From Candidatus Poseidoniia archaeon (GTDB lineage: Archaea > Thermoplasmatota > Poseidoniia > MGIII > CG-Epi1): a DNA stretch of 64,000 nt. The stretch covers positions 15,442-79,441 of the forward strand of contig JASMLC010000006.1 in assembly GCA_030748895.1 (NCBI GenBank). Direction: 5' to 3'. Every line of letters begins with the position of its first letter. Within the stretch, counting starts at the first letter, position 1. The position numbers and the translations under genes were made by a program. The notes under the pieces are model-generated. The model worked only from the letters and a program-made list of their open reading frames with translations. It had not been told where the DNA came from and did not search any database. This document shows positions 2,824 to 42,115 of this stretch, piece after piece.

Positions 2824-2860
2824 CTAGGGCGCGGCAGTCGGCTGGGGGATAAAACGCTGC

Positions 2861-3610
2861 CTATTCCTGAAGCGCGGCCAGGGCCTCTTCCTCGACGAAG
2901 TGCAGTTCGCCCGGAATCACAATGGAGTGCGGCACCTCTCCTATCTTTGCCTGCGCCATTTCCCCCAGCGTGCCGCACCAGAGCTGCTGGTCGCTGCGGC
3001 CGACGCGAGCCGCCGCGCACGCCTGCGCTCCGGTCCCGACGCCGCCCTCGAGCAGCAGCAGCGCCCCTTCGGCAGCAGTCATCAGCCGCGGCTCGGCGGC
3101 GGGGTCATCGGCACGGATGTCGAGCAGTACCAGCGAGTGGAATTCCGCCTCGATATTCTGCAGTACACGCTCCACCGGCGAGAGCGGCCGGTAGTCGCCC
3201 TCCGGCAGCACCAGCGTCGCGACCGGGCCGAAGCGGTAGTGCTGTAGCCCCAGCTCGCCCGCAATCGCCGTCAGCACCGACGCGTTGTGCACGACGTGGC
3301 ACGCGATGCCCACCTCGCGGCACTGCAACCGCAGGCTGACGTGCGTTGTGGCAGCGAGGGGGTCGCCGCCGACCAGCAGCACCGTCGCGTCATCGCGCGC
3401 TGCCGCCAGCAGCGTTTCGGGCTGCTCAACCTCTTCGCGCGATAGCAGCCTCACCTTGCCGGCTTCCTGCTCGACCCACGCCAGCGTTTCCGGCAGCAGC
3501 GGCGAAGTGTAGCCTTCGGCGAAGACTGCGTTGGCCTCGCGGATGGCGGCGATTCCCGCCTGCGTCAGCGATTCCGGACCGCCGAGCCCAAGGCCGACCA
3601 GCGTGAGCAT
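2861..3610 (-). CDS. dphB: diphthine synthase (tetrapyrrole-methylase fold)
   Basis: 249 aa; MLTLVGLGLGGPESLT... N-terminus and overall similarity to archaeal Dph5/DphB. Confidence 0.8.
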   Translation of the reverse strand: MLTLVGLGLGGPESLTQAGIAAIREANAVFAEGYTSPLLPETLAWVEQEAGKVRLLSREEVEQPETLLAAARDDATVLLVGGDPLAATTHVSLRLQCREVGIACHVVHNASVLTAIAGELGLQHYRFGPVATLVLPEGDYRPLSPVERVLQNIEAEFHSLVLLDIRADDPAAEPRLMTAAEGALLLLEGGVGTGAQACAAARVGRSDQQLWCGTLGEMAQAKIGEVPHSIVIPGELHFVEEEALAALQE

Positions 3611-21169: not shown

Positions 21170-22636
<1,467 letters not shown>

Positions 22637-22662
22637 TTTTACACACTTTTCTAGAAATTTTT

Positions 22663-25800: not shown

Positions 25801-28800
25801 CAGCATAGTAAATCCAGGTGTCATTGCGATAAGCGTAAAATCCTGTGTCATTAAGGCCGTACCCACCAAACATTACAATCTGATCGCTATTCCAGTCGTT
25901 GGCCATTGCATGGAAATAACGTGCACTGGGGGTATCCTCACTAAAACTTTCCATCCAATTATTGTTGTTGTAGTAGTAAATCCAGGTCTTGTTGGTATAA
26001 CCTGTGTTAGTTGACCCCCCAAACATCACTGAACTGGTAAAACCAGAAAGTGACACGCCAGTGGCCATTGTGTGATAATAAGTTGGTTCGGGATGGTTGC
26101 TTGGTGTGCGCTCAGTCCAGTTTTGTTCATCAAAATCAAAACCCCACGTATCATCGATACGTCCTGATGCCGGTCTTTCCATCCAGAGCGCATAGAGCAA
26201 TCCGTTTCCAGCCTTGAGACTGGCATAGGTCTGGGCGTTAGACATGTATGGGTCATCATCATCACTTATAACTACGGTAGATTCCCAGGTCGTACCATGG
26301 TCCAGAGAGGCAATCATTACCAGGTCGTAGTCAGCAGTGCCGTCCTTGTCAAAATCACCATAATCTCGCCATGCTACAAAGACACCGGAAGCATCGGCAG
26401 CGAGACAGGGATACATGGAGGATTCTGCAGTTGAATTGGTGATTCTGATGGGCTCGTCCCAATCGTTACCTTGGTTACTGGAACGTGTATAGTGGATTTC
26501 ATAATCAAAACGTTCCCCATCATTATAATATGATTCCCAGGCAATATGAACTTTACCTCCACCTATATCGATTGATGGGCGATAATTACTATCACCATCA
26601 GTTATCCTTTCACCGTAGCCCCAATTTACCCCATAATCGCGTGAAGTACGGACCATTATCTCTGTCCCTTCCCGGTATGCAACGTGAACTCGTGCTCCTT
26701 CAGCAGCGATTACCGGATCATAAGAAAAAGTATCCTCGCGAGTTACTGCTATGGGCTCGCTCCATGACCCCCCCTGGTCGCTGGAATGTGCGAAAGCGAT
26801 GTACCAACCGCCGCCCGTGTCGATCGTACTTGGCACGCTCGCAATCCATATTACATACAGGTGATTACCGGTAGCGACCATTCTTGGCTGATACTGAAAA
26901 TTTCCGTGAGGGTTATAGATTATCTGGTCTCCTTCTTCTGAAATAACACTCGGGTCGCTCCAGGAAGCACCGTTATCATCCGAACGGCGATAAAATATAT
27001 CTCCATCGTCATTGTGAGCATTGTTGCCGTTATCACCTATTTCTCCACCATCCCAATAGATAAGATGCAGATAGTTTTCCGTAGCAGCCAGAGCAGGCAT
27101 GCTTGATTCAATTGATTCATAGTATTGTTCTGAAAGATAGACTGGTTGCGACCAACTTTGTCCCCTATCGCTGCTCTGCGATACAGAAATATCCATATCT
27201 CCACCGGTTCCAGAGGCCGGTTCCCGGTCCCCCCAGGCCATTACCACATCATCACCATCAATGTCTATGCTGGGCCAGTCCCTGGCGACAGAAGCTGCAC
27301 CAGAGTTTGCCTCAACAGGCTCCCCAAAAGAACCTCCACTATTTGTTGATCTTACAACCATAATTCCTGGATCGCCGTCATTCTGTGTCCTTGCCCAAAC
27401 GAGAATCACCTCGCCCTCCGAATCTGCTCTAATCTCGAGTGGATTGTAAGGAAAGGCGTAGAATCCATCATCATTTTCATCCGAAATCAGGTTTATTGCT
27501 CCAAAAGTAAGGCCCCCATTGGATGAACTGCGCATCTGGACTTCATAAGTTCCCCTATTATTAGTGAAATATTCGTACCATCCTACATGAACATAATTAC
27601 TGGCACCCACAGTTGCAACGGCAACCATGGGTCGATAGCCACTATTCTCAGTCCCTGCTTCGTGCATCTGGTAAGGGATGGACCATAATTGGCCATTGTT
27701 AGTAGAACGGCTGTAGGATGTAATGTAACGAGCCAATCCGTCGCTTGTGAAATTATATTCAGTCCATACTGCATGAAGGTTTTCCCCATTTGCTGCGAAA
27801 CGGCATTGGTATGATGTACTGGAACTCGAGGGGGAATTGACTTGCACTGGGTCACTCCAGCTGACACCGCCATCACTGGTGTATCGGTGATAAATATCAT
27901 AGTCAAAACCTGAACCAGACATATTGCCACTATCACTCCACAATAGGTGTAGATTATCACCTTCTTTTACAAGATCATAATCGTATATGTAATTTCCTCC
28001 ATTGGCACGAATAGACTTGAAACTGGACCATGATTCCCCACCATTTACTGAGGTGATCCAGGTCAACTTGTTGGGATATGCGTTGTCTATCCAGCTGAGG
28101 TAGAGCGTACCATCGTCCTCGAATATCCAGGGCATCAGATAGGCTGTTGTAGTACGGCTGAGAAGCTTTGCATTATTCCAGCTTCCATCCGTATAGCTCC
28201 TGAAGATAATGCTGTCATACGTTGTGCTTCGGGTTTCAAGGTCTCCATCATCAAGCCATGCAACAAATATGTCACCGTCTGAATTCCGGGCTACAGCCGG
28301 TGTCTGCGATATGGAGCCGCCATTAGTTTCTGTAGAGGCGAGTTTGTAAGGGTTGAGCTCCCCGGTGCCGTAAGCGTAACCTGTAATGTTCAGGGTGGCT
28401 TCGTGTATAGTTGCGTTGGCAGGAATCAGTATCCCGGCATTGACCTCGTCAGCAGTATGGAACACCGTCGCCTTGCCGGGGCCGCCACTGTCAAAGGTCT
28501 GCTGCATCCCGAGCGCGCCGTATCCCTGCCCGGAATAGCGCCACCTCTCATTACGGACCTGCACCTCGATGTCGGAGGGATACGCCCCGTCAAGCGCTTC
28601 ACCGGTCACTTGCAGCGAGGCAGAGGTGACGGTCGAAGCAGGGAATTCCAGCGTCACCGAGCCGTTGCGGTCCGCTTCGCTGAAGTCGTAAACGACCGAG
28701 TCCAGCTTCTGTTCATACTGAGTGAATTCGCTGGTGGTTTCAGCTCCAGCCAGCAGGGCGAGGTCGGCCCCCAGCAGGCAGAGCACGACGAAGACGGGCA

Positions 28801-28810
28801 GCAGGCGCAT
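22883..28810 (-). CDS. giant cell-surface protein (1975 aa): signal peptide, BNR/Asp-box propeller repeats, Kelch-like repeats, Ig/CARDB-like domains, C-terminal TM helix plus cytoplasmic zinc ribbon
   Basis: MRLLPVFVVLCLLGADLALLAGA signal. At least 10 SxDxGxxW repeats (SVNGGESWS, SDGGVSWSD, SSDRGQSWSQ, SDDNGASWSD, SSDQGGSWSE, SRDYGVNWG, SLDHGTTWES...). Six Kelch-like units (..RY.HAM..D....MFGGYG). C-terminus ...LILVLVGLVLVGGLGVTWFVYQR...CPKCSTML...CTGCATRLQLDE. TTTATA box about 22 nt upstream of ATG (leaderless). Lower GC than core genes. Confidence 0.8.
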   Translation of the reverse strand: MRLLPVFVVLCLLGADLALLAGAETTSEFTQYEQKLDSVVYDFSEADRNGSVTLEFPASTVTSASLQVTGEALDGAYPSDIEVQVRNERWRYSGQGYGALGMQQTFDSGGPGKATVFHTADEVNAGILIPANATIHEATLNITGYAYGTGELNPYKLASTETNGGSISQTPAVARNSDGDIFVAWLDDGDLETRSTTYDSIIFRSYTDGSWNNAKLLSRTTTAYLMPWIFEDDGTLYLSWIDNAYPNKLTWITSVNGGESWSSFKSIRANGGNYIYDYDLVKEGDNLHLLWSDSGNMSGSGFDYDIYHRYTSDGGVSWSDPVQVNSPSSSSTSYQCRFAANGENLHAVWTEYNFTSDGLARYITSYSRSTNNGQLWSIPYQMHEAGTENSGYRPMVAVATVGASNYVHVGWYEYFTNNRGTYEVQMRSSSNGGLTFGAINLISDENDDGFYAFPYNPLEIRADSEGEVILVWARTQNDGDPGIMVVRSTNSGGSFGEPVEANSGAASVARDWPSIDIDGDDVVMAWGDREPASGTGGDMDISVSQSSDRGQSWSQPVYLSEQYYESIESSMPALAATENYLHLIYWDGGEIGDNGNNAHNDDGDIFYRRSDDNGASWSDPSVISEEGDQIIYNPHGNFQYQPRMVATGNHLYVIWIASVPSTIDTGGGWYIAFAHSSDQGGSWSEPIAVTREDTFSYDPVIAAEGARVHVAYREGTEIMVRTSRDYGVNWGYGERITDGDSNYRPSIDIGGGKVHIAWESYYNDGERFDYEIHYTRSSNQGNDWDEPIRITNSTAESSMYPCLAADASGVFVAWRDYGDFDKDGTADYDLVMIASLDHGTTWESTVVISDDDDPYMSNAQTYASLKAGNGLLYALWMERPASGRIDDTWGFDFDEQNWTERTPSNHPEPTYYHTMATGVSLSGFTSSVMFGGSTNTGYTNKTWIYYYNNNNWMESFSEDTPSARYFHAMANDWNSDQIVMFGGYGLNDTGFYAYRNDTWIYYADRDLWLEIPDAGGPAPRYQHAMAFDNITGDVILYGGYGMNETGYYQRFNDTWAFNIQTQKWNEINTTINPGKRSYHKMAGDHSGNIMMFGGYIDVVGYDESTWRYREGNWTMVESTTHPESLRYHAMKHDRENDLIVVFGGYKLSAPYYSDDTWVLDGTTGSWALLETNTTPIARYYHDMTYDVTAEKMVLFGGYIATTFDMYMRFSMDQGQNWSDFVHVSDNEEGELTFGNEAPALAIGERTYLAFRDNGDIDGAGKDDSDIFVRTTKGSDYPLNPKIDIGSSGQYEWQWAGEFNNNNSPVRWDSDSSPGAAGKSFRASLVDALANADTFVDEYGVEMARIPITVSSDSKGVIWLSNMEVEYEVTLTITNQNLIDQLNKRVTNAQNRGDEVAIATLYVSSQTQGRVLVNNLAIETEECDVELRSLHLVPSNPRQGEDLEITAKLRNTGAANARVQVAFWYDVKDLEHRIANFSTNVYADGDDWTAKATWYDIPKGQHTIIVQVIETFPGDSTASASVWYREVNVDIPATNPDIYIVNDGFYLVTTPIELISNVVSVEIDNRGERSGLVDLWVRESDSNGPLIMQHLGFEIDVDTPKKWSADWVVKEIDRLYLLLLDNETGKTLDERFLDLDVQILARFAMLEVSWTPDQISDGSLVDFSMTLQNVGSFDVLTSVEVKLVKGTRVITADPTYWAGQEFLGNGQRLFEFQVRFTESQGGMGQLLYGDWTLQARVFNINSVNEEEQGLWDPEALEFIDESTTVTVAEPPELLLDESSLTISPAKPTAGEVATISMAIYNDGGTDATGQVRVVYGGHSDIIGTFDIVANGEAYPELVWNVPGSMSGDVTIEVQLANIQPAEAGGPAALLDNGGSLRFDVAASSAAVAPGGSSDTGSPLLILVLVGLVLVGGLGVTWFVYQRSQDAILPPAASPAAAMAAITLQCPKCSTMLKVTSSQRPLIVNCTGCATRLQLDE

Positions 28811-28850: not shown

Positions 28851-31800
28851 TCACTCCAGCTTCAGATGGGTCTGGCAGCCCGGACACGCCACGGTCAGCG
28901 GCCGACGCGTGTCTGCAATTTTCAGCTGCGTCTGGCAGCCGGGGCACTGGATGGTTACTGCGGCGGCCGCGGCTGGCGCTACCGGGGCGGCTTGAGGCGC
29001 AGGTTGGGGAGCCGCCGGTGCGGCCGGAGGTGGTGGGGGCGCGGAGGCGACGGGCGGCGCTGCCGGAGCGGGCTCGCCGAGCGCATCTTCCTCGTCAGCA
29101 GGCTGGTCGCCCCCCGTGCGCTGGAAGTAGAAGAAAATTCCGCCCAGCCCAACCAGTAGCATGGCGAAAACCAGCAGGAAAAACGTCAGATTGCCGAGGT
29201 CACCCTCGCCTTCGCTGCCACCACCGGGCTGGGTCACCTTGCCTTTGATGTCGAGCGTGGTGGAAGCGCTGTTATCCTCGGTGCTGGCGCCCTCCATTTC
29301 AGCCGGTGTGATTGATACCAGTTCGGCCTCGAACGGTGTTTCGCCGTCGATATTCGGGCCGACAATCCATTCAATCGTAACATCAGTATCGGCAAAGTCG
29401 CCCGCAACGCTGAACGGAGCGGACTCGATGATGGTGCCGGAGCGAACGAGGTTCACGACGCCGCTTGCGGGCGAATCTCCGCTATTGAGCACCGTGATGG
29501 TGAAGGTGACGGTATCGCCAAAGCTGGGTGTGGAAGGCGAAGCGGTGAATGAGTTAATCGAGAGGTCAGGCGGCTCCGCGACGTTCAGCGTGTAGCTGGT
29601 GTCGATGAAGTGCATTTCTTCCGGGTCCCAGAGGCCTTCGTCAGTGCTATGCTCGGGGCGAACTTCCTTAACGTTCACCTCCAGCGTCCACTGGCCGGTA
29701 AAACCAGAATATTTCGAGGCGTCAAACTCGAAGAGCGGCAGGTTGCCATCCTGCGTCAGGAGCTGGCTCTGCCCGGCGGGGAAAAGCACGTTGGGGAAAT
29801 AATTCGGTGCAACATCCTCCAGCCGGTTGTTGCCGCGCGTCAACGAAATCTCGATGTCGGCCCTGGCATCAAAAGAGCCGCTGTTCTGGATCATAATCTG
29901 CGCATATGCCTCCACACCGTCGGTAAAGATGGTGATCAGGTTCTCGTCGGCGTCCTGCCACTCCACAGAGATGACGTTGAAGTCTACCAGTGTCTGCACC
30001 GAGGGAATCATAAACTCCCGCACATACACGGTGCCGTCGTCGTGGTCAACAACCAGTAACAGTAACTCCTCAACGTCCTTGTCAGCGACCCAGTCAGCAC
30101 TGCGCTGCTTGGTCTCGTCCTCATTAATCTGCACGCCCAGCTCGGAAAGAACGGCAAAGCCGTCCTCATCATCCTCGTATACGTAGATGTCGACTGTCCC
30201 GTACCGGTCGCCGCTATTGTAGAGCTCGACAAGCAGTTCGGTCTCCTCGCCATCAATGGCAGTATCATCAAGCCGGAACGTTTCGACATCGAATGCCGGA
30301 GAAGTTGCCTGGAATTCGTAGTACTGCCGCCAGGTGTTGCCGGCCGTGTCGCTGTCGTCTGGCACCGAGTCGACGATGCTGACAATCAGCTCGTGGCTGC
30401 CGGCGGGCGGGTCCTGCCAGATGGCTGAGACCTGAACATTGCCGCCGGACGGCACGGTTACCGACGACACGTTTCCGAGCTGATTAGACAGAGAAACCTC
30501 ATCATACCAGAAAGCAATCTGGGCAGATACATCTCCGTCCCCATCATTCGAAATAGTCGCGGTAATCGTCAAATCATGGCCTTGGCGCGGAGGGTCGTCA
30601 CTAAGTTGGACCGAATCGATTTCAAGTTCAGCATTGGTCGTTCGGAGATTGAGCTCCTTCAGGACTACGCGCCCCTGCGTGCCGGCGGTTACCGAGATAG
30701 CGGTCTCAACAGTCTCGTCATCCTCGTCAGCATTATTGACCAGTGAGTTGAGCCGGCTCAACAGGGTGGCGCTGCCGAAGACGAGGTCGACGTCGTATTC
30801 CACCGAGAGCGAGTTGAGCCGTACTACTCCTTCGCCATCACTGTGCAACTGTAGCTCAAGCCGTGCCATTTCGACTCCGTACTGGTCCACTTCCGTCTCA
30901 GCTTCTGCCAGAGCGTCGTTAAGTGCGTCCACGAGCGATTTCTGGGCGCCAGGTGAACCACTGTCGCTCCATGTCACTGGCGAATTGTCATCATTCAGCT
31001 CACCACCCCATTGCCAGTCATTACTTCCGTCGCCATCCATATCAATTGAGGGATTGTCGGGATACTCCTCACCCAGAGTTGTGCGCAGGAAAATGTCTGA
31101 ATCATCTGCCCCGGCGCTCGCAATATTTCTTCCATCGGCCCACGCGAAATAGGCACGATTTCCTATCGCTGTGGCAGGCGCCATGTAGTTGTAGCTGGAC
31201 TGGCTGTCACCATTGTATTCTGAAATGGGGAGTATATCCGACCAACTCTCTCCGTCATCCTGAGTAAAACGGAAAAAGTGCTGCCACTCGGTAGTACTGC
31301 CATCGGTCAGGTCCTGCCACGCGACATAAGTGATTCCGTTGCCTGTGACAAGGGCGGGAAAGGTGTAGTAGAAATAGGCGGTGGAATCATCACTGACAAC
31401 AAATGCTTTGTCCCAGGTTACGCCACCATCCTTGGAATGCTTGACAATCACATCGTAATCAGCTACGGCATCACCATCGTAGTCACCATACTCGCGCCAA
31501 GCCACGAACAAACTGTCGTCCTGGCCGCTAACAGAAGGTGAAAGTGATGTAGTGGACGACTCCTCTGTGTCGATTGTCTGGGGCTCGCTCCAGGTCGCAC
31601 CATTATCGTCACTGTTACTGTAAAGAATAGTGTACTGGTTAGTGTTAGTCCAAACCAGCTGGATTTTTCCTCCAGCAAGCGCCATCCAAGGCTGGTCATC
31701 CCAGTCCCCATTATCCGCAGGAACGACTATGTCATCCCAGTTTTGGCCGTAATCGGCAGAATGCCGGAAGGCGATATCATAATCATTCCCACTGCTGTCA

Positions 31801-33956
31801 ACATTCCCGTCTTCAACCCAAGCTATGTAGACGTGCGCGCCCTCCGAAAGAACAAACGGAGCAAACGACCAGTCGTCAGAGCCATGATCGGATATGATGA
31901 ATGGCGTACCCCAGTTTGATCCCCTGTCACTGGATACGGACATCAGGATGTCATAGTCAAGGAGGCTATCCTCGTCGTATAATCCATAATCTACCCAGGC
32001 GACATAGACATAGTCCCCACTAGCGGATATCGAAGGGCGATAATCTGTCTGCTCAACGCTGTTACCATTAGTATCTGCATCTCCATCAAAATGTGAGATT
32101 ACAATGGGGCTGCTCCAACTCTCACCATCATCGCTGGAATGGCGAAAAAATATATCGCCATCATCACCATGGGCATCATTACCGTTGCTATCGGATTGCT
32201 GATTAAGGTCACCTCCATCCCAGTATGCGAGGTACAACGAATCTCCTGAAGTAGCGAGCGCGGGCATCCACGAATCCGCTTCATAGTAATGTTCGGAAAT
32301 CTGATTTACGACTGACCATGAACTGCCTCCATCGCCAGAAGTGGCATAGTGGATGTCCTGCTCACTCGAGGCTCCACCGCTGCTGTCACGGTCCGACCAG
32401 ACCACAGCAATGTCCGAGCCCTCGGCAGTGACCCAAGGTGAGGCGCGGAAGTCAACCTCTACATCGTTATCAATTGTCTCGGGGTCGCTCCAGGTCGTGC
32501 CGCCATTGGAGGAGTCGCTGATAACAATCCGGTAGGGCTGGTCTGCATCCACCGTTGTACGACGCCATGTACTGTAGAACCCCCCGTCGCCATCAGCCGC
32601 GACGGAGACGAACGCAACATTGTTGTCATCGGAAGTTGAGAGGGTACTCTCAGTACCGAAACTGGTTCCCCCGTTCGAGGAAGCTCTTGCCTTGACGGAA
32701 GGCTGGGCGCCAGTCTCGGCGTTGGAATCTATCCATATCACGACCACGCGATTTCCGTCATCGACATCGATGTTGCAATCATTGACGGTACGGTCGACCG
32801 AACTCAGCTGCTGTTGCGTGCCGAAGGTAGTGCCGCGGTTACTGGATTGACGGTACTGGACTGTGTAGTATGCGTTGTCACTGTCATACTCCATCCACAC
32901 CACGTAAACATTACTGCCGCTTACAGCCACTGCAGGGTAGAGGCTGCTCTGATCGCTCGACGAAGACACGAGGGTCGGTGTGCTCCAGCTATCGCCACCA
33001 TCATCGGAGGAAACGACATAGATGTCGGGGTCTGTGCCCTGATTACTCATATTATTGTCATCGGCATAAACCACGTAGACATACCCGTCGGTAGCAGCCA
33101 TGGCAAGACCATAGGTTAGGTTACTCTCATCAAGATCAACTTTCTTGGTCTCGGACCAGCTGCTGCCGCTATTGGTAGATACACGCAAATGAATCTCATC
33201 GCCTTTCACGGTCAATAAGCCATATGATTCCCAAGCCGCGTAGAGGGTTGAGCCATCGCGTGCCAGAGTCTGGTAGTCCAGTATGGGTGAGCTACTGGTG
33301 CCGCTACTGGCGAGTACGACAGCATCATTCCAATTACTGCTGGTGTAGCTACGGAAGAGGATATTCTCGTAGTTCACATCGCTCAGGTTCCCATAATCCT
33401 GCCAGATTACGAATAGGTCATCGCCATTATTGACAACTTTCGGGGCATAACTGACAGAACCACCATTAGTATCGATTGAGGATAATCTGAAATCATCTAA
33501 CTCACCCGAACCATAGGGCAATCCGCTAATGTCGACCGTGGCGTCCGTCACGGTTGCATTGGCCGGAATAAGCATCTCAATCGTATCATCACCGGCGGAG
33601 GGGAAGCTGGCGCTGGCACTGTTGCCGCCGCTGACGAAGAGCTGCTGCCGTCCCAGTTCGCCATAGCCCTTGCCACTGTACCTCCAGGTGCTGCTGCTCA
33701 CCGCGACTTCGATGTCGCTGGCGTAATCGCCGTCGTCATCGGCGCCGCCGCTGATGGTGATTGCTGCCTCGAGCACCTCCGCCCGCGGGAAGAGCAGGCT
33801 GGTCAGCGCATCCTCCTCGCCGCTGGTGAGGTCGAGGCTGACGCTGTCGGTGTACGCGTCGTCACGGTAATACTGCGTGACGGTCTCGCCCATGGCCGGG
33901 ATGTTCAGCACCAGCAGTGCGGCGAGCAAAAGCGAAAACAGGCGTTGGGAGTACAT
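28851..33956 (-). CDS. giant cell-surface protein (about 1700 aa), paralog of 22883..28810 with the same domain order and the same C-terminal TM plus zinc-ribbon tail
   Basis: Track ORF to 34061. Probable start MYSQRLFSLLLAALLVLNIPAMG (ATG about 33956) with TTTAAAA box about 30 nt upstream. Many BNR repeats (SNGGTSFG, SSNGGTTWSD, SGDGGSSWS, SDDGESWSS, SSDRGSNWG, SADYGQNWDD, SDDNGATWSE, SKDGGVTWD, QDDGESWSD). C-terminus ...FFLLVFAMLLVGLGGIFFYFQR-(Pro/Ala-rich linker)-CPGCQTQLKIADTRRPLTVACPGCQTHLKLE. Confidence 0.8.
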   Translation of the reverse strand: MYSQRLFSLLLAALLVLNIPAMGETVTQYYRDDAYTDSVSLDLTSGEEDALTSLLFPRAEVLEAAITISGGADDDGDYASDIEVAVSSSTWRYSGKGYGELGRQQLFVSGGNSASASFPSAGDDTIEMLIPANATVTDATVDISGLPYGSGELDDFRLSSIDTNGGSVSYAPKVVNNGDDLFVIWQDYGNLSDVNYENILFRSYTSSNWNDAVVLASSGTSSSPILDYQTLARDGSTLYAAWESYGLLTVKGDEIHLRVSTNSGSSWSETKKVDLDESNLTYGLAMAATDGYVYVVYADDNNMSNQGTDPDIYVVSSDDGGDSWSTPTLVSSSSDQSSLYPAVAVSGSNVYVVWMEYDSDNAYYTVQYRQSSNRGTTFGTQQQLSSVDRTVNDCNIDVDDGNRVVVIWIDSNAETGAQPSVKARASSNGGTSFGTESTLSTSDDNNVAFVSVAADGDGGFYSTWRRTTVDADQPYRIVISDSSNGGTTWSDPETIDNDVEVDFRASPWVTAEGSDIAVVWSDRDSSGGASSEQDIHYATSGDGGSSWSVVNQISEHYYEADSWMPALATSGDSLYLAYWDGGDLNQQSDSNGNDAHGDDGDIFFRHSSDDGESWSSPIVISHFDGDADTNGNSVEQTDYRPSISASGDYVYVAWVDYGLYDEDSLLDYDILMSVSSDRGSNWGTPFIISDHGSDDWSFAPFVLSEGAHVYIAWVEDGNVDSSGNDYDIAFRHSADYGQNWDDIVVPADNGDWDDQPWMALAGGKIQLVWTNTNQYTILYSNSDDNGATWSEPQTIDTEESSTTSLSPSVSGQDDSLFVAWREYGDYDGDAVADYDVIVKHSKDGGVTWDKAFVVSDDSTAYFYYTFPALVTGNGITYVAWQDLTDGSTTEWQHFFRFTQDDGESWSDILPISEYNGDSQSSYNYMAPATAIGNRAYFAWADGRNIASAGADDSDIFLRTTLGEEYPDNPSIDMDGDGSNDWQWGGELNDDNSPVTWSDSGSPGAQKSLVDALNDALAEAETEVDQYGVEMARLELQLHSDGEGVVRLNSLSVEYDVDLVFGSATLLSRLNSLVNNADEDDETVETAISVTAGTQGRVVLKELNLRTTNAELEIDSVQLSDDPPRQGHDLTITATISNDGDGDVSAQIAFWYDEVSLSNQLGNVSSVTVPSGGNVQVSAIWQDPPAGSHELIVSIVDSVPDDSDTAGNTWRQYYEFQATSPAFDVETFRLDDTAIDGEETELLVELYNSGDRYGTVDIYVYEDDEDGFAVLSELGVQINEDETKQRSADWVADKDVEELLLLVVDHDDGTVYVREFMIPSVQTLVDFNVISVEWQDADENLITIFTDGVEAYAQIMIQNSGSFDARADIEISLTRGNNRLEDVAPNYFPNVLFPAGQSQLLTQDGNLPLFEFDASKYSGFTGQWTLEVNVKEVRPEHSTDEGLWDPEEMHFIDTSYTLNVAEPPDLSINSFTASPSTPSFGDTVTFTITVLNSGDSPASGVVNLVRSGTIIESAPFSVAGDFADTDVTIEWIVGPNIDGETPFEAELVSITPAEMEGASTEDNSASTTLDIKGKVTQPGGGSEGEGDLGNLTFFLLVFAMLLVGLGGIFFYFQRTGGDQPADEEDALGEPAPAAPPVASAPPPPPAAPAAPQPAPQAAPVAPAAAAAVTIQCPGCQTQLKIADTRRPLTVACPGCQTHLKLE

Positions 33957-34015
33957 GCGTGGCCTCGACCCCTCCTGCTCCAACGCCATTTTAAACTTCA
34001 CGCGCTGGCACGACC

Positions 34016-34738
34016 GTGACTGAGCAACTGCACATGGCCTCGTTCGAGGGCACCTACACACGCCAGTTCTCGGCGACGGTCGAGGCGGTCCACCCGGGAA
34101 TCGTCGAGCTGGACCGCACGGCGTTCTACCCGTTCGGCGGCGGGCAGCCGGCCGATACAGGCCGGCTCGAATGGGAGGGCGGCACAGCGAGCGTCGAGGA
34201 CGTACGCAAGCGCAACCGCCTGCGGCACATGGTTGCGGGCGACCTGCCGGAGGTCGGCACGACGGTCGAGGGCGCCCTCAACTGGGAGCGGCGCTACGCG
34301 CACATGAAGATGCACTCCTCACAGCACCTCGTCTCGGCGGTCGTCGACCAGCTCCACGGTGCGCGCACCGTCGGCAACCAGCTTTACGCCGACAAAGCGC
34401 GCATCGATTTCCAGCCGCTGCGGCTCTCCCCCGCGCAGCTATCCGAGGTCGAGGCCGAAGCGAACCGCTACCTTGCGAGGGACTTGCCGGTCACCATCAC
34501 CGAGGGCGAGCGCAGCGAGCTGGAGCAGGACCCGCTGGTGCGCTCGAACCTCGCGCTGCTCCCGCCATCAATCAAACGCCTGCGCGTCATAAGCATCGGC
34601 AACCTGGATACCTGTCCCTGCGCCGGCACGCATGTCCGCTCCCTCGGGGAAATCGGCGAAATCGAGTTCACGAAGCGCGATAACAAAGGCAGCGGCAAGC
34701 AGCGGCTGACGTATGCGCTGCGCGACCCCACCCCTTAA
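34016..34738 (+). CDS. alaX: alanyl-tRNA editing protein AlaX (AlaX-M type, Ser-tRNA(Ala) deacylase)
   Basis: 240 aa; FYPFGGGQP.D.G motif, zinc-binding HSSQHL and CAGTHV motifs of the AlaRS editing domain. GTG start at 34016 in the track; ATG alternative at 34034. Confidence 0.75.
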   Translation: MTEQLHMASFEGTYTRQFSATVEAVHPGIVELDRTAFYPFGGGQPADTGRLEWEGGTASVEDVRKRNRLRHMVAGDLPEVGTTVEGALNWERRYAHMKMHSSQHLVSAVVDQLHGARTVGNQLYADKARIDFQPLRLSPAQLSEVEAEANRYLARDLPVTITEGERSELEQDPLVRSNLALLPPSIKRLRVISIGNLDTCPCAGTHVRSLGEIGEIEFTKRDNKGSGKQRLTYALRDPTP

Positions 34739-37384: not shown

Positions 37385-37990
37385 ATGGTCGCCGACAACT
37401 TCCGCGAAATTGGCACGCGCCTGCTGACACCGCTGGCGCGCAGCTTCCCGCTCGACCCGATGGGCATCAGCCTGCTCTCACTCGCGACCGCTATCGGCGC
37501 CGGCTACTGCTTCTCGCAGGCGAACGCCGGTGAGGTATGGCTGCTCTACGCGGCGGGACTGGTGTTCCTCACCGCCCTCCTGGACGCGCTCGATGGTATC
37601 GTCGCCCGCATCCGCAACCTCGCCTCGAAGCGGGGCGACCTCGTCGACCACACGCTTGACCGCGTCGCCGACGTAATCATCCTCGGCGGCATCGCGCTGG
37701 GGCCGCTGGTCAATGAACGCGCCGGATTTGCAGCCCTTCTCGGCGTGCTGCTGCTCTCCTACATGGGGACGCAGGCGCAGGCCGTGGGAGCCGGCCGCGT
37801 CTACAGCGGGCTGCTGGGCCGCGCCGACCGGCTGGTGCTGCTGATGACGGTACCGGTCATCCAGTTCTTTTTCGACGTGCCGATTGAGGGCGAATATCTG
37901 ATTACATGGATGGCGTACACCTTCGCGGTCGTCTGCTCCGGGTCGGCGCTGCTACGCTTCTGGTTGGTCTGGAAATTTCTGGAAAAATAG
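37385..37990 (+). CDS. CDP-alcohol phosphatidyltransferase family protein (archaetidyl-inositol-phosphate/serine synthase-like)
   Basis: 201 aa membrane protein with DALDGIVAR...G...D...D (D-x2-DG-x2-AR...G-x3-D-x3-D) signature. Confidence 0.75.
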   Translation: MVADNFREIGTRLLTPLARSFPLDPMGISLLSLATAIGAGYCFSQANAGEVWLLYAAGLVFLTALLDALDGIVARIRNLASKRGDLVDHTLDRVADVIILGGIALGPLVNERAGFAALLGVLLLSYMGTQAQAVGAGRVYSGLLGRADRLVLLMTVPVIQFFFDVPIEGEYLITWMAYTFAVVCSGSALLRFWLVWKFLEK

Positions 37991-38135
37991 GAACTATATG
38001 GGTTTTATTAACAGACGTATGAGTCTGGCAATGGTGGCCTTGAAGGACATCACTAGTGACGAGAAGGAAATTGAAAGGATTCAGTCCTACTTTGTAGATG
38101 ATGACGAAGAAGAAAATATCGCAGGAGACAAATAA

Positions 38136-38840
38136 ATGATAAAAGAAAAGACAGTGGGTGAGATGGTTGTTAATGATGGACGTGTAGCAACAGTTTTCAA
38201 TAAATTTGGATTGGATTTTTGTTGCAATGGTCACCAGACTCTTGAAGCAGCTTGTGCGTCAAAAGGCATCAATCTCCAAGAGATTGTAGATGATATCGAG
38301 CTGTTAATGAAAAACGATAGCAATCCTGATAGATCATTTAACGATATGTCTTTGGACAAGCTAATTGAACATATTTATGACAAACATCACCAATATATTT
38401 ACAAAAATTGTCCAGCAATCTCTAAATTCATCAACAAGGTAGCAAATGTTCATGGCAAAAATCATCCAGAGACTGTTGAAATTGCAAAAATGTTTGATGA
38501 ATTACAATTAGAACTTGAACAACATTTGTTCAAAGAAGAACATATTCTGTTTCCATATGTAAAAGGTATGGTTTTGGAAGATAAATGCCCGGGTTCTTTT
38601 GTAAATGGCCCTATATCTGTAATGATGGAAGAACATGATAATGCTGGAAGAATTCTTGAGGTATTAAGAAGGATAAGTAATAACTACAAGCCACCAAAAG
38701 ACGCTTGTAATACATTCAGGGCAGCATATGTCAATTTACAAGCCCTAGAAGAAGATCTTCACATGCATATTCACTTGGAAAATAACATTCTTTTTCCTAA
38801 AGCAATAGAACTAGAAAATAGCTTATTGGAAAACGTCTGA
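38136..38840 (+). CDS. iron-sulfur cluster repair di-iron protein (RIC/ScdA/YtfE family)
   Basis: 234 aa; N-terminal ScdA_N-like VGEMVVNDGRVATVFNKFGLDFCCNG; hemerythrin-like His/Glu pattern (HH..., EEH, HMHIHLENNILFP). Located in the AT-rich island. Confidence 0.7.
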   Translation: MIKEKTVGEMVVNDGRVATVFNKFGLDFCCNGHQTLEAACASKGINLQEIVDDIELLMKNDSNPDRSFNDMSLDKLIEHIYDKHHQYIYKNCPAISKFINKVANVHGKNHPETVEIAKMFDELQLELEQHLFKEEHILFPYVKGMVLEDKCPGSFVNGPISVMMEEHDNAGRILEVLRRISNNYKPPKDACNTFRAAYVNLQALEEDLHMHIHLENNILFPKAIELENSLLENV

Positions 38841-38864
38841 AAGCGAAATCCTGTGGAAGAATCA

Positions 38865-39191
38865 CTATATGTGGGAGTCTGAGGGGCTTGGATCTGCCCT
38901 GCATATCTTGGTTGGAGACTCCAGAAAGCGATTGATGGCAATCTCGGCTATATTGGAACCATATTCACCTATCCAGGCGATATTCCAGCCAATCGACCGG
39001 ATACTGGAGGCAAGGGTAGGATGAAAATCGGCTGTCAGCTTGAATAATATAGAAGTAAAGGCCGCTTCCTCTTCCTTCAGGATACCGCGGCGGATGATCG
39101 CTTCATTGGCAAGTCCTATGTCACGGTTGATAAGTGAGGAGAGTGCCATCTCCAGAGACTCCATGACTGTGTGCCCCATTTCGATTCCCAT
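38865..39191 (-). CDS. PhoU-domain protein (single PhoU repeat); start uncertain
   Basis: Track ORF 38865..39311. The C-terminal 90 aa match the PhoU motif (..DIGLANEAIIRRGILKEEEA...NIAWIGEYGSNIAEIAI, like dLERIGDhavNIAE). The S/T-rich N-terminal 40 aa are probably not translated. An overlapping plus-strand ORF exists (see rejected). Confidence 0.4.
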   Translation of the reverse strand: MGIEMGHTVMESLEMALSSLINRDIGLANEAIIRRGILKEEEAAFTSILFKLTADFHPTLASSIRSIGWNIAWIGEYGSNIAEIAINRFLESPTKICRADPSPSDSHI

Positions 39192-39401
39192 TGAAGAAGA
39201 ATATACCGTTGATTTTTTTGCAGATAAAGCGGGTGAATTCACATACCGTAGTACTGGGCTGTGCAAAGTCGAGATTGCTGGAGGCAATGAAGTAATCGTA
39301 GACTGCTCCATATTTTGTGGTGAGATAGGTAATGCACGTACGGGAACAATTGTGATTGAGTCAAATCCTTCTGGTTAGTCCTATTCAGTCAAAGATTCAG
39401 G

Positions 39402-39422
39402 AGCCGGATGAGGAAGCCTGAG
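39402..39422. repeat. 21-bp direct repeat AGCCGGATGAGGAAGCCTGAG (copy 1)
   Basis: Recurs with one mismatch at 40068..40088, bracketing the SnoaL-like gene. Confidence 0.6.
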
Positions 39423-39511
39423 CCATAAGGTGCTGTTATAGGATCTATAGTAGACCCCTCCCCTCATTTCTTTCGCAGTATAGTTTTTATAGATGTATAG
39501 TATAGAAAGTC

Positions 39512-39913
39512 ATGAGCAAAGCCGAAGTTAATGCTGCAAATTTAGAATTCTACGCCGCCTTAAATAAAATATTATCTGGCCAACTTGCCCCGATGGAGGC
39601 CGTTTGGTCTCATGCTGACGATATCACTTATATGGGGCCTGCAGCCGGGGACTACAAGGTGGGCTGGGAGGCGGTACGAAAAGACTGGGAAGGACAGCTG
39701 GGTTTGCGGGGCACCGTGGAACCGGTGGAGGTGCAGATCACGTCTGGCCCCCTCATTGCGACGGTCAGCAATATCGAGAGTATAAGAATGGAAATCCAAG
39801 GAGAGCTTAAAGACATAAGTATCCGCGCTACAAATATTTTCCGCAAGGAGGATGGACATTGGAAAATGATTGGCCATCATGTGGATCCTCTCCCATCTTT
39901 TCCTTCGCAGTAA
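39512..39913 (+). CDS. SnoaL-like / NTF2-like (ketosteroid-isomerase fold) protein
   Basis: 133 aa; NTF2-like pattern. TTTTATAG box about 27 nt upstream of the ATG (leaderless). Flanked by 21-bp direct repeats. Confidence 0.55.
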   Translation: MSKAEVNAANLEFYAALNKILSGQLAPMEAVWSHADDITYMGPAAGDYKVGWEAVRKDWEGQLGLRGTVEPVEVQITSGPLIATVSNIESIRMEIQGELKDISIRATNIFRKEDGHWKMIGHHVDPLPSFPSQ

Positions 39914-40067
39914 AAGCAATACCTCTGGCAGGATTTATTGTGGGGCAATATATCTCTCCAAAGAAGAGGAACATTACAAACACGTAGATAAGAATTGTCT
40001 AATCTTTTCTGCACTGAATATTGTTCTCGGTTTCATAATGATAGCTGCAATATTAGGAAGTCTGTGA

Positions 40068-40088
40068 AGCCGGATGAGGAAGCCTTAG
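40068..40088. repeat. 21-bp direct repeat AGCCGGATGAGGAAGCCTTAG (copy 2); also forms an imperfect palindrome with downstream TCCGGCTT
   Basis: See copy 1. 666 bp apart. Confidence 0.6.
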
Positions 40089-40090
40089 AA

Positions 40091-40258
40091 TTAATCGTCT
40101 TCCGGCTTAGTTAACGCCATTATTATGCAGGCAACTACGAACACAATGCCTCCCCAACAACTCAGTGCCCATAAACGCCCAGATGCGATGATACTGAACA
40201 GGAGGAAAACAAGTAGTAAGATTAACCCAACAGAGAAGTATAATGCGTTGTTTTCCAT
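40091..40258 (-). CDS. small two-TM membrane protein (55 aa)
   Basis: Below the track size cut-off. MENNALYFSVGLILLLVFLLFSIIASGRLWALSCWGGIVFVVACIIMALTKPEDD. TTATAAAT box 26 nt upstream of the ATG on the minus strand. Confidence 0.35.
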   Translation of the reverse strand: MENNALYFSVGLILLLVFLLFSIIASGRLWALSCWGGIVFVVACIIMALTKPEDD

Positions 40259-40433
40259 AGGATACTATTCTATCACAAATTTATAAGCTTTTCAATATGA
40301 ACAACCACAGTATTTTAATCTCAGGAGGCGTCAGGGGGGTGTGAAGGATAAACTCGCAAACATTGTGATTTGGATTGTGTTACTTGGTGCGGAAGTCCTA
40401 AATACTAACTGATTCGGTCGCAGTCAAGCTAGG

Positions 40434-41039
40434 ATGAGTACACACGCTGACGCACTTGGAAGAAGGGCATTGATTATTGCCTTCATTATAAATTTGATAA
40501 TGATGTCAGTAGATTTATGGTACGGTTTAATGATGAAATCAGCTTCATTGTTAGGTGATGCTGCTAACAATTCAGGAGACGTGTTTATCCTTGGATCGAG
40601 CATCCTCGTGCTATCGTCAACCACAGCCGTCAAGAACAGACTGGCATTGTTCAAAGGAATAATAATGACCGTATTTGGTCTGTGGGCATTCTATCATGTA
40701 TATCTGGGTCTGATAGAGGAATCGGATTTGTTGACTGGAGGTACTATTTCTATTATTGGAGTAATGTCACTGGCTGGCAACGCGAGCGTTGCATTCATGA
40801 TGTACAAGCACCAGCACAAAGACATAAACTTCATGAGTGCATTTATCTGCTGCAGGAATGACGCCTTTGCTTCAGCTGGAATTATCCTTGCCGGTCTATT
40901 GGTATGGTATTTTGATGCTTCCTGGCCCGACATCATAATCGGGGCCGCCATAGCAGCCATCGTTTGCCATGGGGGAATCCAGGTTATCAGAATGAGTCTC
41001 GACCCTGCTTCTCAGGAAGAGGATTGCGAGTGCTGCTAG
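40434..41039 (+). CDS. cation diffusion facilitator (CDF) family transporter, short form lacking C-terminal cytoplasmic domain
   Basis: 201 aa, 5-6 TM. N-terminal HADALGRRALIIAFIINLIMM and DAANNSGDV segments resemble the CzcD/ZitB TM domain. Ends with a Cys-rich tail (EEDCECC). Confidence 0.55.
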   Translation: MSTHADALGRRALIIAFIINLIMMSVDLWYGLMMKSASLLGDAANNSGDVFILGSSILVLSSTTAVKNRLALFKGIIMTVFGLWAFYHVYLGLIEESDLLTGGTISIIGVMSLAGNASVAFMMYKHQHKDINFMSAFICCRNDAFASAGIILAGLLVWYFDASWPDIIIGAAIAAIVCHGGIQVIRMSLDPASQEEDCECC

Positions 41040-41048
41040 GGTCTTAAT

Positions 41049-41255
41049 TTAAAAAGGGATAGAAATGGGAGACTCTCCTGTAGTATCGCTTAATCGGTAA
41101 GTTACCCATGCACCAACTAGCCAACCAAGAGCTAGTATCATTACTCCCAACATCATAAACGCATCCCCACCATTTGGACCAATACCGGAATTACCAATAA
41201 ATATCACAACAAAACCGAAAAGCCACACCCAAATAGGCAGAAGATTTTTGTCCAT
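41049..41255 (-). CDS. small two-TM membrane protein (68 aa), hypothetical
   Basis: ORF convergent with the CDF gene. TTAAAG element about 28 nt upstream of the ATG. Confidence 0.3.
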   Translation of the reverse strand: MDKNLLPIWVWLFGFVVIFIGNSGIGPNGGDAFMMLGVMILALGWLVGAWVTYRLSDTTGESPISIPF

Positions 41256-41328
41256 ATCGGTGCGATACGCATCTAGATATGACTTTAACTGGAAAAATAG
41301 TTTCTGGAAAGATTAGAAGCCTGCGCGC

Positions 41329-41484
41329 TGGTGGGAGCGCTGGGATTTGAACCCAGATCGGCGGGTCTCACCTATGGTGGCGTGCAGGTCAGCGCTCCAG
41401 TCATTCATCACTGTTCAGCAGACCTATTGCCATCATTCCTGCATAACTGGAGCCCGCAATGATGCCGAGTTACACCACACTCCC
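41329..41484 (-). tRNA. tRNA-Trp (anticodon CCA) with an 80-nt intron (38-nt 5' exon, 80-nt intron, 38-nt 3' exon incl. CCA)
   Basis: Minus-strand acceptor GGGAGTG/CGCTCCC, T-arm CTGGG-TTCAAAT-CCCAG, anticodon stem GCGGG/CCCGC reconstituted only after removing 41367..41446, loop CTCCAGA (CCA anticodon), encoded CCA end. Oligo-T about 30 nt downstream. Confidence 0.75.
41387..41437 (-). ncRNA. C/D box sRNA embedded in the tRNA-Trp intron (C AUGAUGG, D' CUGA, C' UGAUGA, D CUGA)
   Basis: Intron (minus-strand reading) ...aATGATGg-caataggtctg-CTGA-acag-TGATGA-atgactggagcg-CTGA... The D-box guide is complementary to GCTCCAGTT at the 5' exon/intron junction, placing the fifth nucleotide upstream of box D opposite C34 of tRNA-Trp. 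The D' guide matches CAGACC (position 39) of the ligated exons. Confidence 0.7.
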
Positions 41485-41572
41485 TGTTACGCGCAGGCGA
41501 GGGCGCATTGTGTGCCGCTCTTAAAGTTCACGGCCACGGAGCGTTTATTTACGGGCAGCCGTCGCGGGCCGC

Positions 41573-42115
41573 GTGGCGAGCGCCAAACCGCAGCCTGCAG
41601 CCAGTCCCGATGAGCGGGAGCCGGTTCAGGTTGTGCCTGAACCGGCTCCTGAAGAGGCGGACGCCGGCACCGACGCAGAGGGCGCGGCCGAAGTGGTGGA
41701 CGGCGAGGAAGAGGAACGGCCGGAGCACGAGCCGTGCCATCCGCTCGACAAAATCTGGCTGCCGACTTACGCTGATGAGAACACGCAGAATGCGAAGCAT
41801 GACTGGTGCCTGAATACAGGCATCATCCGCAACCAGAGCGGCGAAGAGGCGCGGCCGCGCGGGTTCTGGGTGGCGGCGCTGCGCAAGCTCCAGCGGAGGC
41901 TGGCGAAGGAAGCGGACAAGACCCACATGACTGGGCAGCTGACCGACGCACAGGAGCGCATCATCCTCCACGAGCTTGACGCGCTCGAGGGTTTCTACGA
42001 CCGCTGGTGGCGCACTGAGTCGTCGCAGGTCCACAAGTTTGTGCAGGTGGTCCAGAAATGGCGGCCGGATATTTCGGAGCGCGTCATCGTCGACACCATA
42101 ACCCGGATGTGGTAG
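41573..42115 (+). CDS. hypothetical protein (180 aa, acidic low-complexity N-terminus)
   Basis: GTG-initiated ORF immediately upstream of rpe (1-nt spacing). No family recognised. Confidence 0.4.
   Translation: MASAKPQPAASPDEREPVQVVPEPAPEEADAGTDAEGAAEVVDGEEEERPEHEPCHPLDKIWLPTYADENTQNAKHDWCLNTGIIRNQSGEEARPRGFWVAALRKLQRRLAKEADKTHMTGQLTDAQERIILHELDALEGFYDRWWRTESSQVHKFVQVVQKWRPDISERVIVDTITRMW

Follow-up and report, generated by a model that had tools for sequence, protein, structure and literature searches.

The 156-nt segment at positions 41329-41484 on the minus strand of the analyzed window, i.e., of a stretch of 64,000 nucleotides originating from a Candidatus Poseidoniia archaeon, raises the question whether it represents a functional tRNA-Trp(CCA) gene whose intron directs 2'-O-methylation of its own host tRNA, and whether one or two tRNA positions are addressed by the intron. 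Candidatus Poseidoniia form a class within the Thermoplasmatota and comprise abundant, uncultured, mesophilic archaea of marine habitats. In keeping with such a host, the window features a GC content of approximately 65%, harbors a lone archaeal 16S rRNA gene and encodes giant surface proteins of the Kelch/BNR/CARDB type. A functional tRNA-Trp(CCA) gene with an intronic small RNA (sRNA), which would first guide methylation of C34 (Cm34) and subsequently be removed by splicing, is proposed as the whole explanation of the locus with a probability of about 0.85.

Identification of the tRNA-Trp Gene and Its Intron

Applying ARAGORN with introns allowed, a tRNA-Trp(cca) gene containing an 80-nt intron was predicted for the isolated segment as well as for the segment in its sequence context. 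Removal of the intron leads to a clean 76-nt cloverleaf featuring the CCA anticodon, the G1-C72 pair, A73 and an encoded CCA end, as also deduced from ARAGORN. When the region was searched alone, the Rfam tRNA model matched with 39.6 bits (gathering threshold of 29) and placed an 84-nt insertion in the anticodon loop. Read 5' to 3' from 41484 down to 41329, the pre-tRNA is composed of exon 1 (41447-41484 (-); tRNA positions 1-37; GGGAGUGUGGUGUAACUCGGCAUCAUUGCGGGCUCCAG), the 80-nt intron (41367-41446 (-); UUAUGCAGGAAUGAUGGCAAUAGGUCUGCUGAACAGUGAUGAAUGACUGGAGCGCUGACCUGCACGCCACCAUAGGUGAG) inserted at the canonical 37/38 site and holding the box C/D sRNA, and exon 2 (41329-41366 (-); positions 38-76; ACCCGCCGAUCUGGGUUCAAAUCCCAGCGCUCCCACCA), the intron and exon 2 being delimited by ARAGORN. 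The anticodon CCA is located at 41450-41448, with C34 at 41450, the discriminator A73 at 41332 (-), and the genomically encoded 3' CCA at 41331-41329 (-). The predicted junction of the spliced exons reads GGGCUCCAG joined to ACCCGCC, and that of the circular intron CAUAGGUGAG joined to UUAUGCAGGA.

The gene was missed by ARAGORN at default settings, a tRNA-Val then being the sole tRNA recorded for the whole window, and it was not listed by the whole-window Rfam tRNA search with default filters. Furthermore, the Rfam box C/D family RF01133 ('sR3') matched positions 41440-41387 (-) with 43.4 bits compared to a gathering threshold of 41, corresponding to an E-value of 1.4e-07 for the whole 64-kb window. 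The feature is confirmed as a real archaeal tRNA-Trp gene with an intronic box C/D sRNA. A previous sequence-only reading of this DNA had described an 80-nt insert between positions 37 and 38 of tRNA-Trp(CCA), and ARAGORN with introns allowed returned the same result. Its coordinates (41329-41484), intron length, isotype and boxes were correct, and the strand, which it had left unstated, is the minus strand.

Anatomy of the Intronic Box C/D sRNA

Within the tRNA-Trp intron, the box order C, D', C' and D is complete, with a D'-C' spacer of 3-4 nt. All boxes proposed earlier, together with guides of 11-12 nt, were found by motif scanning and reading of the sequence, namely box C (AUGAUGG; 41430-41436 (-)), which is also covered by the RF01133 match, box D' (CUGA; 41415-41418 (-)), box C' (UGAUGA; 41405-41410 (-)), which is preceded by a G at 41411, and box D (CUGA; 41389-41392 (-)). 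In the following, guide nucleotides are numbered n1, n2, n3 and onward, starting with the nucleotide adjoining the box and counting away from it. The 11-nt D' guide CAAUAGGUCUG (41419-41429 (-)) is arranged such that n5 lies opposite C39, and the 12-nt D guide AUGACUGGAGCG (41393-41404 (-)) such that n5 lies opposite C34.

Directly outside boxes C and D, a terminal stem is formed by its 5' strand GCAGG (41438-41442 (-)) and its 3' strand CCUGC (41384-41388 (-)); terminal pairing is also present in the Rfam snoPyro_CD alignment. The trinucleotide AAU constitutes a 3-nt bulge ahead of the GA of box C, and the resulting order GCAGG-AAU-GA / CUGA-CCUGC represents a K-turn layout, the corresponding geometry being predicted. 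The sRNA is separated from the 3' splice site by a tail of 22 nt. By motif scan, no further C/D sRNAs were found in the 64-kb window, the intron being the sole such arrangement. A 28-nt segment at 40851-40878, considered as a partial second sRNA copy due to its 71% inverted match to the 5' half, was rejected as a chance match; it resides in a cation-efflux ORF and is not followed by C' and D boxes.

Pairing of the D Guide with C34

Nucleotides n2-n12 of the D guide pair with GGCUCCAGUUAU, which corresponds to G31-G37 and intron nucleotides 1-4. On exact alignment, the duplex comprises 11 base pairs (ten Watson-Crick pairs and one G.U pair) with an energy of -18.7 kcal/mol, and C34 is located opposite n5. 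The sequence-only reading had assumed a 10-nt pairing across the exon-1/intron junction with C34 at the same register and was thus slightly conservative. The additional pair between n12 and intron nucleotide 4 occurs in only four of the 81 sequences compared below. Archaeal C/D RNPs accommodate a duplex of at most 10 nt (PMC7229835, citing Yang et al. 2016), into which the D guide core n2-n11 fits.

The D duplex extends into the intron, and both guides show covariation with nucleotides of the intron; the substrate must therefore be the unspliced pre-tRNA, either the same or another molecule. Based on the anatomy of the element, the RF01133 score above threshold, the covariation among 81 relatives and the conservation of the intron, it is very probable that the intronic sRNA guides Cm34 formation in its own tRNA.

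Comparative Analysis of the Guide Duplexes

One genome per species was scanned with a pattern of the type TGATGN{11,14}CTGAN{3,9}TGATGANNNNNTGGAGNNCUGA, leading to at least 120 loci. Among the 120 genome loci listed, an intron-containing tRNA was predicted by ARAGORN in 107, comprising 104 tRNA-Trp and three tRNA-Arg calls; the latter became tRNA-Trp(CCA) once the intron was set at 37/38. The taxa represented among the listed loci are Methanomicrobiales, Archaeoglobi, Thermoplasmata, DHVE2/Aciduliprofundum, Poseidoniia and Methanosphaera (Methanobacteriales). Two loci labeled as 'Nitrososphaeria' (L076) and 'Bathyarchaeota' (L069) were not counted as occurrences outside the Euryarchaeota. They possess introns identical or nearly identical to those of Archaeoglobi, are located on short contigs (one of 1.2 kb) and probably represent mis-binned MAG contigs. 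Moreover, scanning of metagenomes with the pattern GGCTCCAGTTN{25,55}TGATGANNNNNTGGAGNNCTGA yielded 88 loci and 46 distinct pre-tRNAs. From the genome matches listed and the metagenome loci, 81 distinct sequences were compiled in an ungapped alignment consisting of four fixed-length pieces: positions 26-37 with intron nucleotides 1-6, the D' guide with box D', the D guide with box D, and the last ten intron nucleotides with positions 38-45.

In these 81 relatives, 89.6% of the cells of the guide duplexes represent standard pairs, compared to 29-48% when the partners were slid by one to three columns. Compensatory changes (n=81 for each pair) were observed between intron nucleotide 1 and D guide n9 (CG 46, UA 34, UG 1), intron nucleotide 2 and n10 (GC 51, UA 24, UG 5), and intron nucleotide 3 and n11 (GC 59, AU 20), as well as between D' guide n3 and the last intron nucleotide (CG 58, UA 13) and between D' guide n2 and the penultimate intron nucleotide (UA 67, AU 5). 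These counts refer to related sequences, in which UGGAG..CUGA was fixed by both scan patterns and intron nucleotides 1-2 were fixed as UU by the metagenome pattern; compensatory changes were tabulated at positions that the patterns left free. At the level of sequence comparison, both guide duplexes and also the competing bulge-helix-bulge motif described below are supported by compensatory changes.

The D' Guide and Position 39

Within the D' guide, nucleotides n2-n6 form five contiguous Watson-Crick pairs with intron nucleotides 79 and 80, A38, C39 and C40. The A at n7 mismatches C41, and the U at n8 forms an isolated G.U pair with G42. A duplex energy of -7.6 kcal/mol was calculated for the window, compared to -11.4 kcal/mol for the sister lineage L160 and -14.8 kcal/mol for Methanomicrobiales. 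At n7, the window carries A, whereas G, providing a further G-C pair, is present in 72 of the 81 relatives. Since the outgroups (DHVE2, Thermoplasmata, Methanomicrobiales and Archaeoglobi) have G at this position, the A of the window is derived and the position-39 duplex has been weakened.

Within the 16S rRNA encoded in the window, the best sites for this guide comprise six Watson-Crick pairs and one G.U pair, which is approximately expected by chance for 1.5 kb, and the match to C39 is no better than these. Because chance matches within the 16S rRNA are equal or better, the D' match alone is not significant and obtains its meaning from register and homology. A search for other targets of the D' guide covered the 16S rRNA, tRNA-Val and the entire window, which is devoid of a 23S rRNA gene, and supported none.

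With these results, a reading in which the intron of this lineage guides Cm34 only comes almost, but not quite, to an even prospect. It considers the D' guide as an eroding relic, the C'/D' motif being kept since efficient methylation by the D guide requires a symmetric RNP. The A at n7, reducing the duplex to five base pairs, fits this reading, and so do two other groups of marine-metagenome sequences with related tRNA-Trp exons, which keep the C34 guide and have lost the position-39 match. One of them features the C box AUGACGA and the D' guide AAUAAGUGAU, the other the C box AUGAAGA and U39, and lacks a D' box. Furthermore, a 1-nt insertion in the D' guide is tolerated by the close relative L106. 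However, the five remaining pairs n2-n6 centre on the target with n5 opposite C39, and relatives with diverged flanks share an otherwise unchanged D' guide region. Moreover, fewer pairs may suffice in a mesophile, and the local concentration would be raised if guide and target belong to one molecule.

The odds of an active position-39 guide in the lineage of the window are roughly even, and its D' guide may act weakly or not at all. Regarding the previously claimed match around position 39, the register with C39 at n5 was recovered, but the match is weak, being limited to the five contiguous pairs and the isolated G.U pair. Likewise, of the claimed dual guidance, the Cm34 part is supported, whereas guidance of both positions is not established for this lineage given the degenerate D' guide. 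Judged from the variation among the relatives, the C34 half of the element looks indispensable and the position-39 half dispensable.

The Splice Motif and Its Competition with the Guide Duplexes

The exon-intron boundaries can be arranged as an hBHBh' motif, in which the 5-bp anticodon stem represents h. The central helix is composed of C32-U33-C34-C35 (CUCC) and GGUG (intron nucleotides 75-78) and includes one U33.U mismatch. It is bordered by the bulges A36-G37-U (intron nucleotide 1) and A (nucleotide 79)-G (nucleotide 80)-A38, and h' is formed by UAUG (intron nucleotides 2-5) and CAUA (intron nucleotides 71-74). The 3' strand of the motif, consisting of CAUA at 41376-41373 and GGUG at 41372-41369, spans positions 41369-41376 (-) as deduced from the manual model and covariation. 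Because AG repeats at both ends of the intron, the sequence alone leaves an uncertainty of 2 nt in the splice position; cleavage after the second bulge nucleotide leads to 37/38, and the bulge-helix-bulge therefore resolves this ambiguity.

In the 81 relatives, 87.2% of the cells of the motif are paired, compared to 34-51% when slid, and covariation was observed for the anticodon stem and h'. Imperfect central helices are frequent, with C34.A present in 31 of 81 sequences and the U33.U of the window in four of 81. Unconstrained minimum-free-energy folding of the pre-tRNA resulted in a structure of -62.1 kcal/mol featuring neither the cloverleaf nor the bulge-helix-bulge, and is uninformative on its own since neither fold was recovered. 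Genes for a splicing endonuclease or an RNA ligase were not found among the 20 ORFs of the window that were scanned against Pfam.

As C32-C35 and intron nucleotides 2-4 are shared, the bulge-helix-bulge and the guide duplexes are mutually exclusive. This sharing of nucleotides, together with covariation in favor of both folds, would also be compatible with a mainly non-catalytic role of the C/D element as pre-tRNA chaperone, in stabilisation of the circular intron or in the timing of splicing, methylation being incidental or absent. According to its title in the reference list of PMC4090602, the study by Joardar et al. 2008 found the intron and the methylations not to be essential in Haloferax. 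Nevertheless, the location of C34 at the n5 register is invariant, although this is partly forced by the search pattern, and a chaperone function alone leaves the canonical spacing to box D and the conserved catalytic architecture unexplained. In addition, methylation in vitro has been published (cited in PMC7994747). A mainly non-catalytic role is considered very unlikely.

Conservation of the Pre-tRNA and Features of Its Flanks

Compared to the L160-type sister lineage, 78 of 80 intron positions, 36 of 38 positions of exon 1 and all 38 positions of exon 2 are identical, whereas identity decreases to approximately 60% in the 500 nt upstream and to 72% in the promoter/leader region. D' n7 accounts for one of the two intron differences, the window having A and the sister lineage G. 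Judged from these identities, the intron is constrained as much as the exons, and selection on it is equally strong. Among the matches listed, L011 (also designated 'Candidatus Poseidoniia archaeon') and L106 possess a near-identical pre-tRNA with flanks 85-89% identical to those of the window. In relatives with 60-89% identical flanks, the pre-tRNA is conserved to 97-100%, and an identical pre-tRNA was present in all six of the six places examined, which represent independent marine assemblies. Moreover, a compensatory change in the T-stem was observed in L153. For the neighbouring ribulose-phosphate 3-epimerase, the exact protein was found on marine metagenome contigs, including those of TARA Oceans, and the six places examined were taken from these contigs.

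Approximately 39 nt upstream of the mature 5' end, an AT-rich, TATA-like box (CTTTAAGAG; 41518-41526 (-)) is located, which is kept in all close relatives and probably represents the archaeal promoter of the gene. A scan for sigma-70 promoters and intrinsic terminators, which is inapplicable to archaea, returned none. That the locus represents a chance match or a decaying tRNA pseudogene, as the default tRNA scans without the gene might suggest, is effectively refuted by the conservation of the pre-tRNA exceeding that of its flanks, and considering also the E-value of 1.4e-07, the perfect cloverleaf, the T-stem compensation and the conserved TATA-like box, its probability is negligible.

The tRNA is enclosed by a conserved 9-bp leader-trailer helix formed by the leader strand GCCUGCGCG (41490-41498 (-)) and the trailer strand CGCGCAGGC (41319-41327 (-)). 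An energy of -22.8 kcal/mol was calculated for this helix, compared to -9.4 +/- 2.9 kcal/mol in shuffled sequences, and covariation was observed in relatives, in which C-G is replaced by U.G and U-A. The helix lies outside the described system and could order end-processing, methylation and splicing. It is conceivable, although somewhat doubtful, that marine Poseidoniia-related archaea, in which the C34 guide is invariant, are converting an ancestral dual-guide into a single-guide tRNA-Trp intron and that the leader-trailer helix perhaps orders its processing. A duplicated tRNA 3' end in the sense of an attachment site was not found within three mismatches. A weak 18-nt direct repeat flanks a low-GC stretch.

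Proposed Mechanism

For the functional gene with an intronic Cm34 guide, the following course of events is proposed. The gene would be transcribed from the upstream TATA-like box, and the intron would fold into a terminal C/D K-turn, closed by GCAGG/CCUGC, and an internal C'/D' K-loop. By analogy to the known family, K-turn and K-loop are expected to recruit L7Ae, Nop5 and fibrillarin. In the unspliced pre-tRNA, the 12-nt D guide would pair with the anticodon loop and the first four intron nucleotides, and fibrillarin would produce Cm34 because C34 lies opposite the fifth nucleotide counted from box D. Spanning the intron/exon-2 junction, the D' guide aligns with C39 in the correct register, one G-C pair having been lost in the lineage. 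After methylation, the pre-tRNA would refold into the competing bulge-helix-bulge, whereupon the splicing endonuclease would cut at 37/38, the exons would be ligated and the intron would probably be released as a circle. We infer RNP assembly, catalysis, the order of events and circularisation from what has been reported for related archaeal systems. In these, C34 and position 39 (Um39) are 2'-O-methylated under guidance of the C/D RNP of the tRNA-Trp intron, and after excision the intron persists as a stable circle (PMC4090602, PMC7994747, PMC3326292; the reviews cite Omer 2000, Clouet d'Orval 2001, Bortolin 2003 and Singh 2004). Regarding the action of the guides, the literature has shifted from a cis to a trans model (PMC7994747).

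Relation to Known Systems

Descriptions of the pre-tRNA-Trp intron sRNA (Omer 2000; Clouet d'Orval 2001; Singh 2004) are summarized in the reviews PMC4090602 and PMC7994747. The sequence-only reading had recognized the arrangement of Haloferax and Pyrococcus tRNA-Trp, in agreement with the reviews PMC4090602, PMC7994747 and PMC3326292. With the RF01133 systems of Haloferax volcanii, Pyrococcus (sR50) and Archaeoglobus, the window shares the host tRNA, the 37/38 site, the four boxes, the terminal stem flanking boxes C and D, a D guide with C34 at n5 across the exon-1/intron junction, a D' guide that spans the intron/exon-2 junction with position 39 in register and a competing bulge-helix-bulge. 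As in Haloferax, the guide duplexes and the splice fold are mutually exclusive. RF01133 scores amount to 43.4 bits for the window, 66.3 bits for Archaeoglobus and 60.2 bits for Methanomicrobiales, the latter two matches being nested in Rfam tRNA hits. Since the same model matches the tRNA-Trp introns of Archaeoglobus and Methanomicrobiales, the element of the window represents a marginal-scoring RF01133 member. It differs from these systems in the D' duplex, which is cut to five base pairs by the G-to-A change at n7, in a box C ending in G, in a D duplex extending to n12, in the U.U mismatch of the central helix, in the 22-nt 3' tail and in its mesophilic, marine Poseidoniia host. In contrast to Haloferax, position 39 is C instead of U.

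Free-standing, trans-acting C/D sRNAs also target C34, e.g., in Pyrococcus tRNA-Leu, tRNA-Met and tRNA-Trp (PMC7994747). They share the RNP type, the n5 rule and the wobble target with the window but are encoded by independent genes, whereas the copy in the window lies within an intron and has guides that pair with nucleotides of this intron. Stand-alone copies with the same guide (..UGGAGNNCUGA) were found in MAGs of Micrarchaeota, Anstonellales, Thermoproteales and Desulfurococcaceae. The tRNA-Trp intron of Sulfolobus solfataricus, a stable 65-nt circle, is complementary to positions 34 and 39 like that of the window (PMC3326292). However, it lacks consensus C and D boxes (PMC3326292), whereas the intron of the window possesses all four boxes.

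Implications for Poseidoniia and Related Archaea

The finding is not new in kind but extends a 25-year-old textbook arrangement to the Poseidoniia; no paper on a tRNA-Trp intron sRNA in Poseidoniales or Thermoplasmatota was found in a literature search. It had been suggested that the intact arrangement helps to place the organism among lineages of euryarchaeal origin. This is only weakly true. The trait occurs in many orders of Euryarchaeota and, being widespread in Methanomicrobiales, Archaeoglobi, Thermoplasmata, DHVE2, Poseidoniia and Methanobacteriales, represents a weak taxonomic marker. Because tools operated without an intron mode may miss the gene, such MAGs could be reported to lack tRNA-Trp, with consequences for completeness calls based on the tRNA complement. 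Furthermore, the relatives constitute a natural-variation dataset, in which methylation-competent and splicing-competent folds of the pre-tRNA are both maintained and which points to the position-39 guide as evolutionarily more dispensable than the C34 guide.

Predicted Leader–Trailer Helix and Upstream Elements of the tRNA-Trp Gene

In the precursor of the intron-containing tRNA-Trp(CCA), the 5' leader strand GCCUGCGCG (41498-41490, minus strand) can pair over 9 bp with the 3' trailer strand CGCGCAGGC (41327-41319, minus strand), and the whole tRNA is predicted to be enclosed by this leader–trailer helix, leaving an internal loop of 4x4 or 5x5 nucleotides (UAACA / ACCAG). An energy of -22.8 kcal/mol was calculated for this helix, compared to -9.4 +/- 2.9 kcal/mol in shuffled sequences. 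One of its pairs, C-G in the window, is replaced by U.G in L160, representing the sister lineage, and in L209, and by U-A in L170 and L182 (all of them relatives among the metagenome loci). Among the tRNA-Trp loci listed, the helix is restricted to the lineage of the window.

Upstream of the mature tRNA 5' end, two AT-rich boxes were found on the minus strand, namely CTTTAAGAG at a distance of approximately 39 nt (41526-41518) and CGTAAATAAAC at approximately 66 nt (about 41551-41541). Both boxes are unchanged in every close relative, whereas the sequence flanking them varies. The box CTTTAAGAG at 41526-41518 likely represents an archaeal TATA box. The ribulose-phosphate 3-epimerase gene is separated from the tRNA by an ORF (41573-42115 on the plus strand / 41549-42034 on the minus strand), which has no Pfam match and comprises 160–180 aa as called on the contigs of relatives.

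Genomic Surroundings of the tRNA Gene

Synteny between the window and its relatives ends at 41316/41317, directly past the tRNA trailer, and in the metagenome locus L174 homology ends exactly at the tRNA 3' end. The adjoining 3.3 kb (37976-41318) feature a GC content of 41–49% compared to approximately 65%, and harbor a ScdA/hemerythrin gene (38136-38840) as well as a cation-efflux gene (40434-41039). Furthermore, this stretch is flanked on both sides by an imperfect 18-nt direct repeat (37976-37993 and 41301-41318). The low-GC stretch may represent a variable island beside the tRNA gene.

Elsewhere in the window, a complete archaeal 16S rRNA gene was identified (21170-22637, minus strand; 1485 bits), which is solitary, i.e., lacks an adjoining 23S rRNA gene. 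On one side, it adjoins a gene for a solute-binding protein; the opposite side is occupied by two giant ORFs, encoding 1975 aa with Kelch/BNR/CARDB (22883-28810) and 1736 aa with BNR/CARDB (28851-34061).

Variant and Free-Standing C34 Guides at Other Loci

At locus L037 from a Methanoregula MAG (about 2700-2900, minus strand), a degenerate sequence resembling exon 2 lies downstream of a C/D sRNA of the tRNA-Trp intron type, and a recognizable exon 1 is absent. This arrangement may be a decayed second copy. Moreover, two further marine tRNA-Trp groups were observed among the metagenome loci L127–L214 (e.g., L129, L128), featuring introns of 95–115 nt in which box C', the C34 guide and box D are retained, the C boxes are variant (AUGACGA, AUGAAGA) and the D' guide is either absent or without a match to position 39. 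For some of these loci, ARAGORN placed exon 2 wrongly (95 nt instead of 113 nt).

Stand-alone C/D sRNAs, without surrounding tRNA exons, were encoded at the genome-contig loci L007, L046, L058, L091, L065 and L121, originating from MAGs labelled Anstonellales, Micrarchaeota, Thermoproteales and Desulfurococcaceae. Their D guides end in UGGAGNNCUGA, matching C34 of tRNA-Trp, and in the DPANN members (Anstonellales, Micrarchaeota) the D' guide terminates in GGUUUG or GGUUUU, similar to the position-39 guide. Such sRNAs look like a trans-acting counterpart of the dual guide residing in the tRNA-Trp intron.
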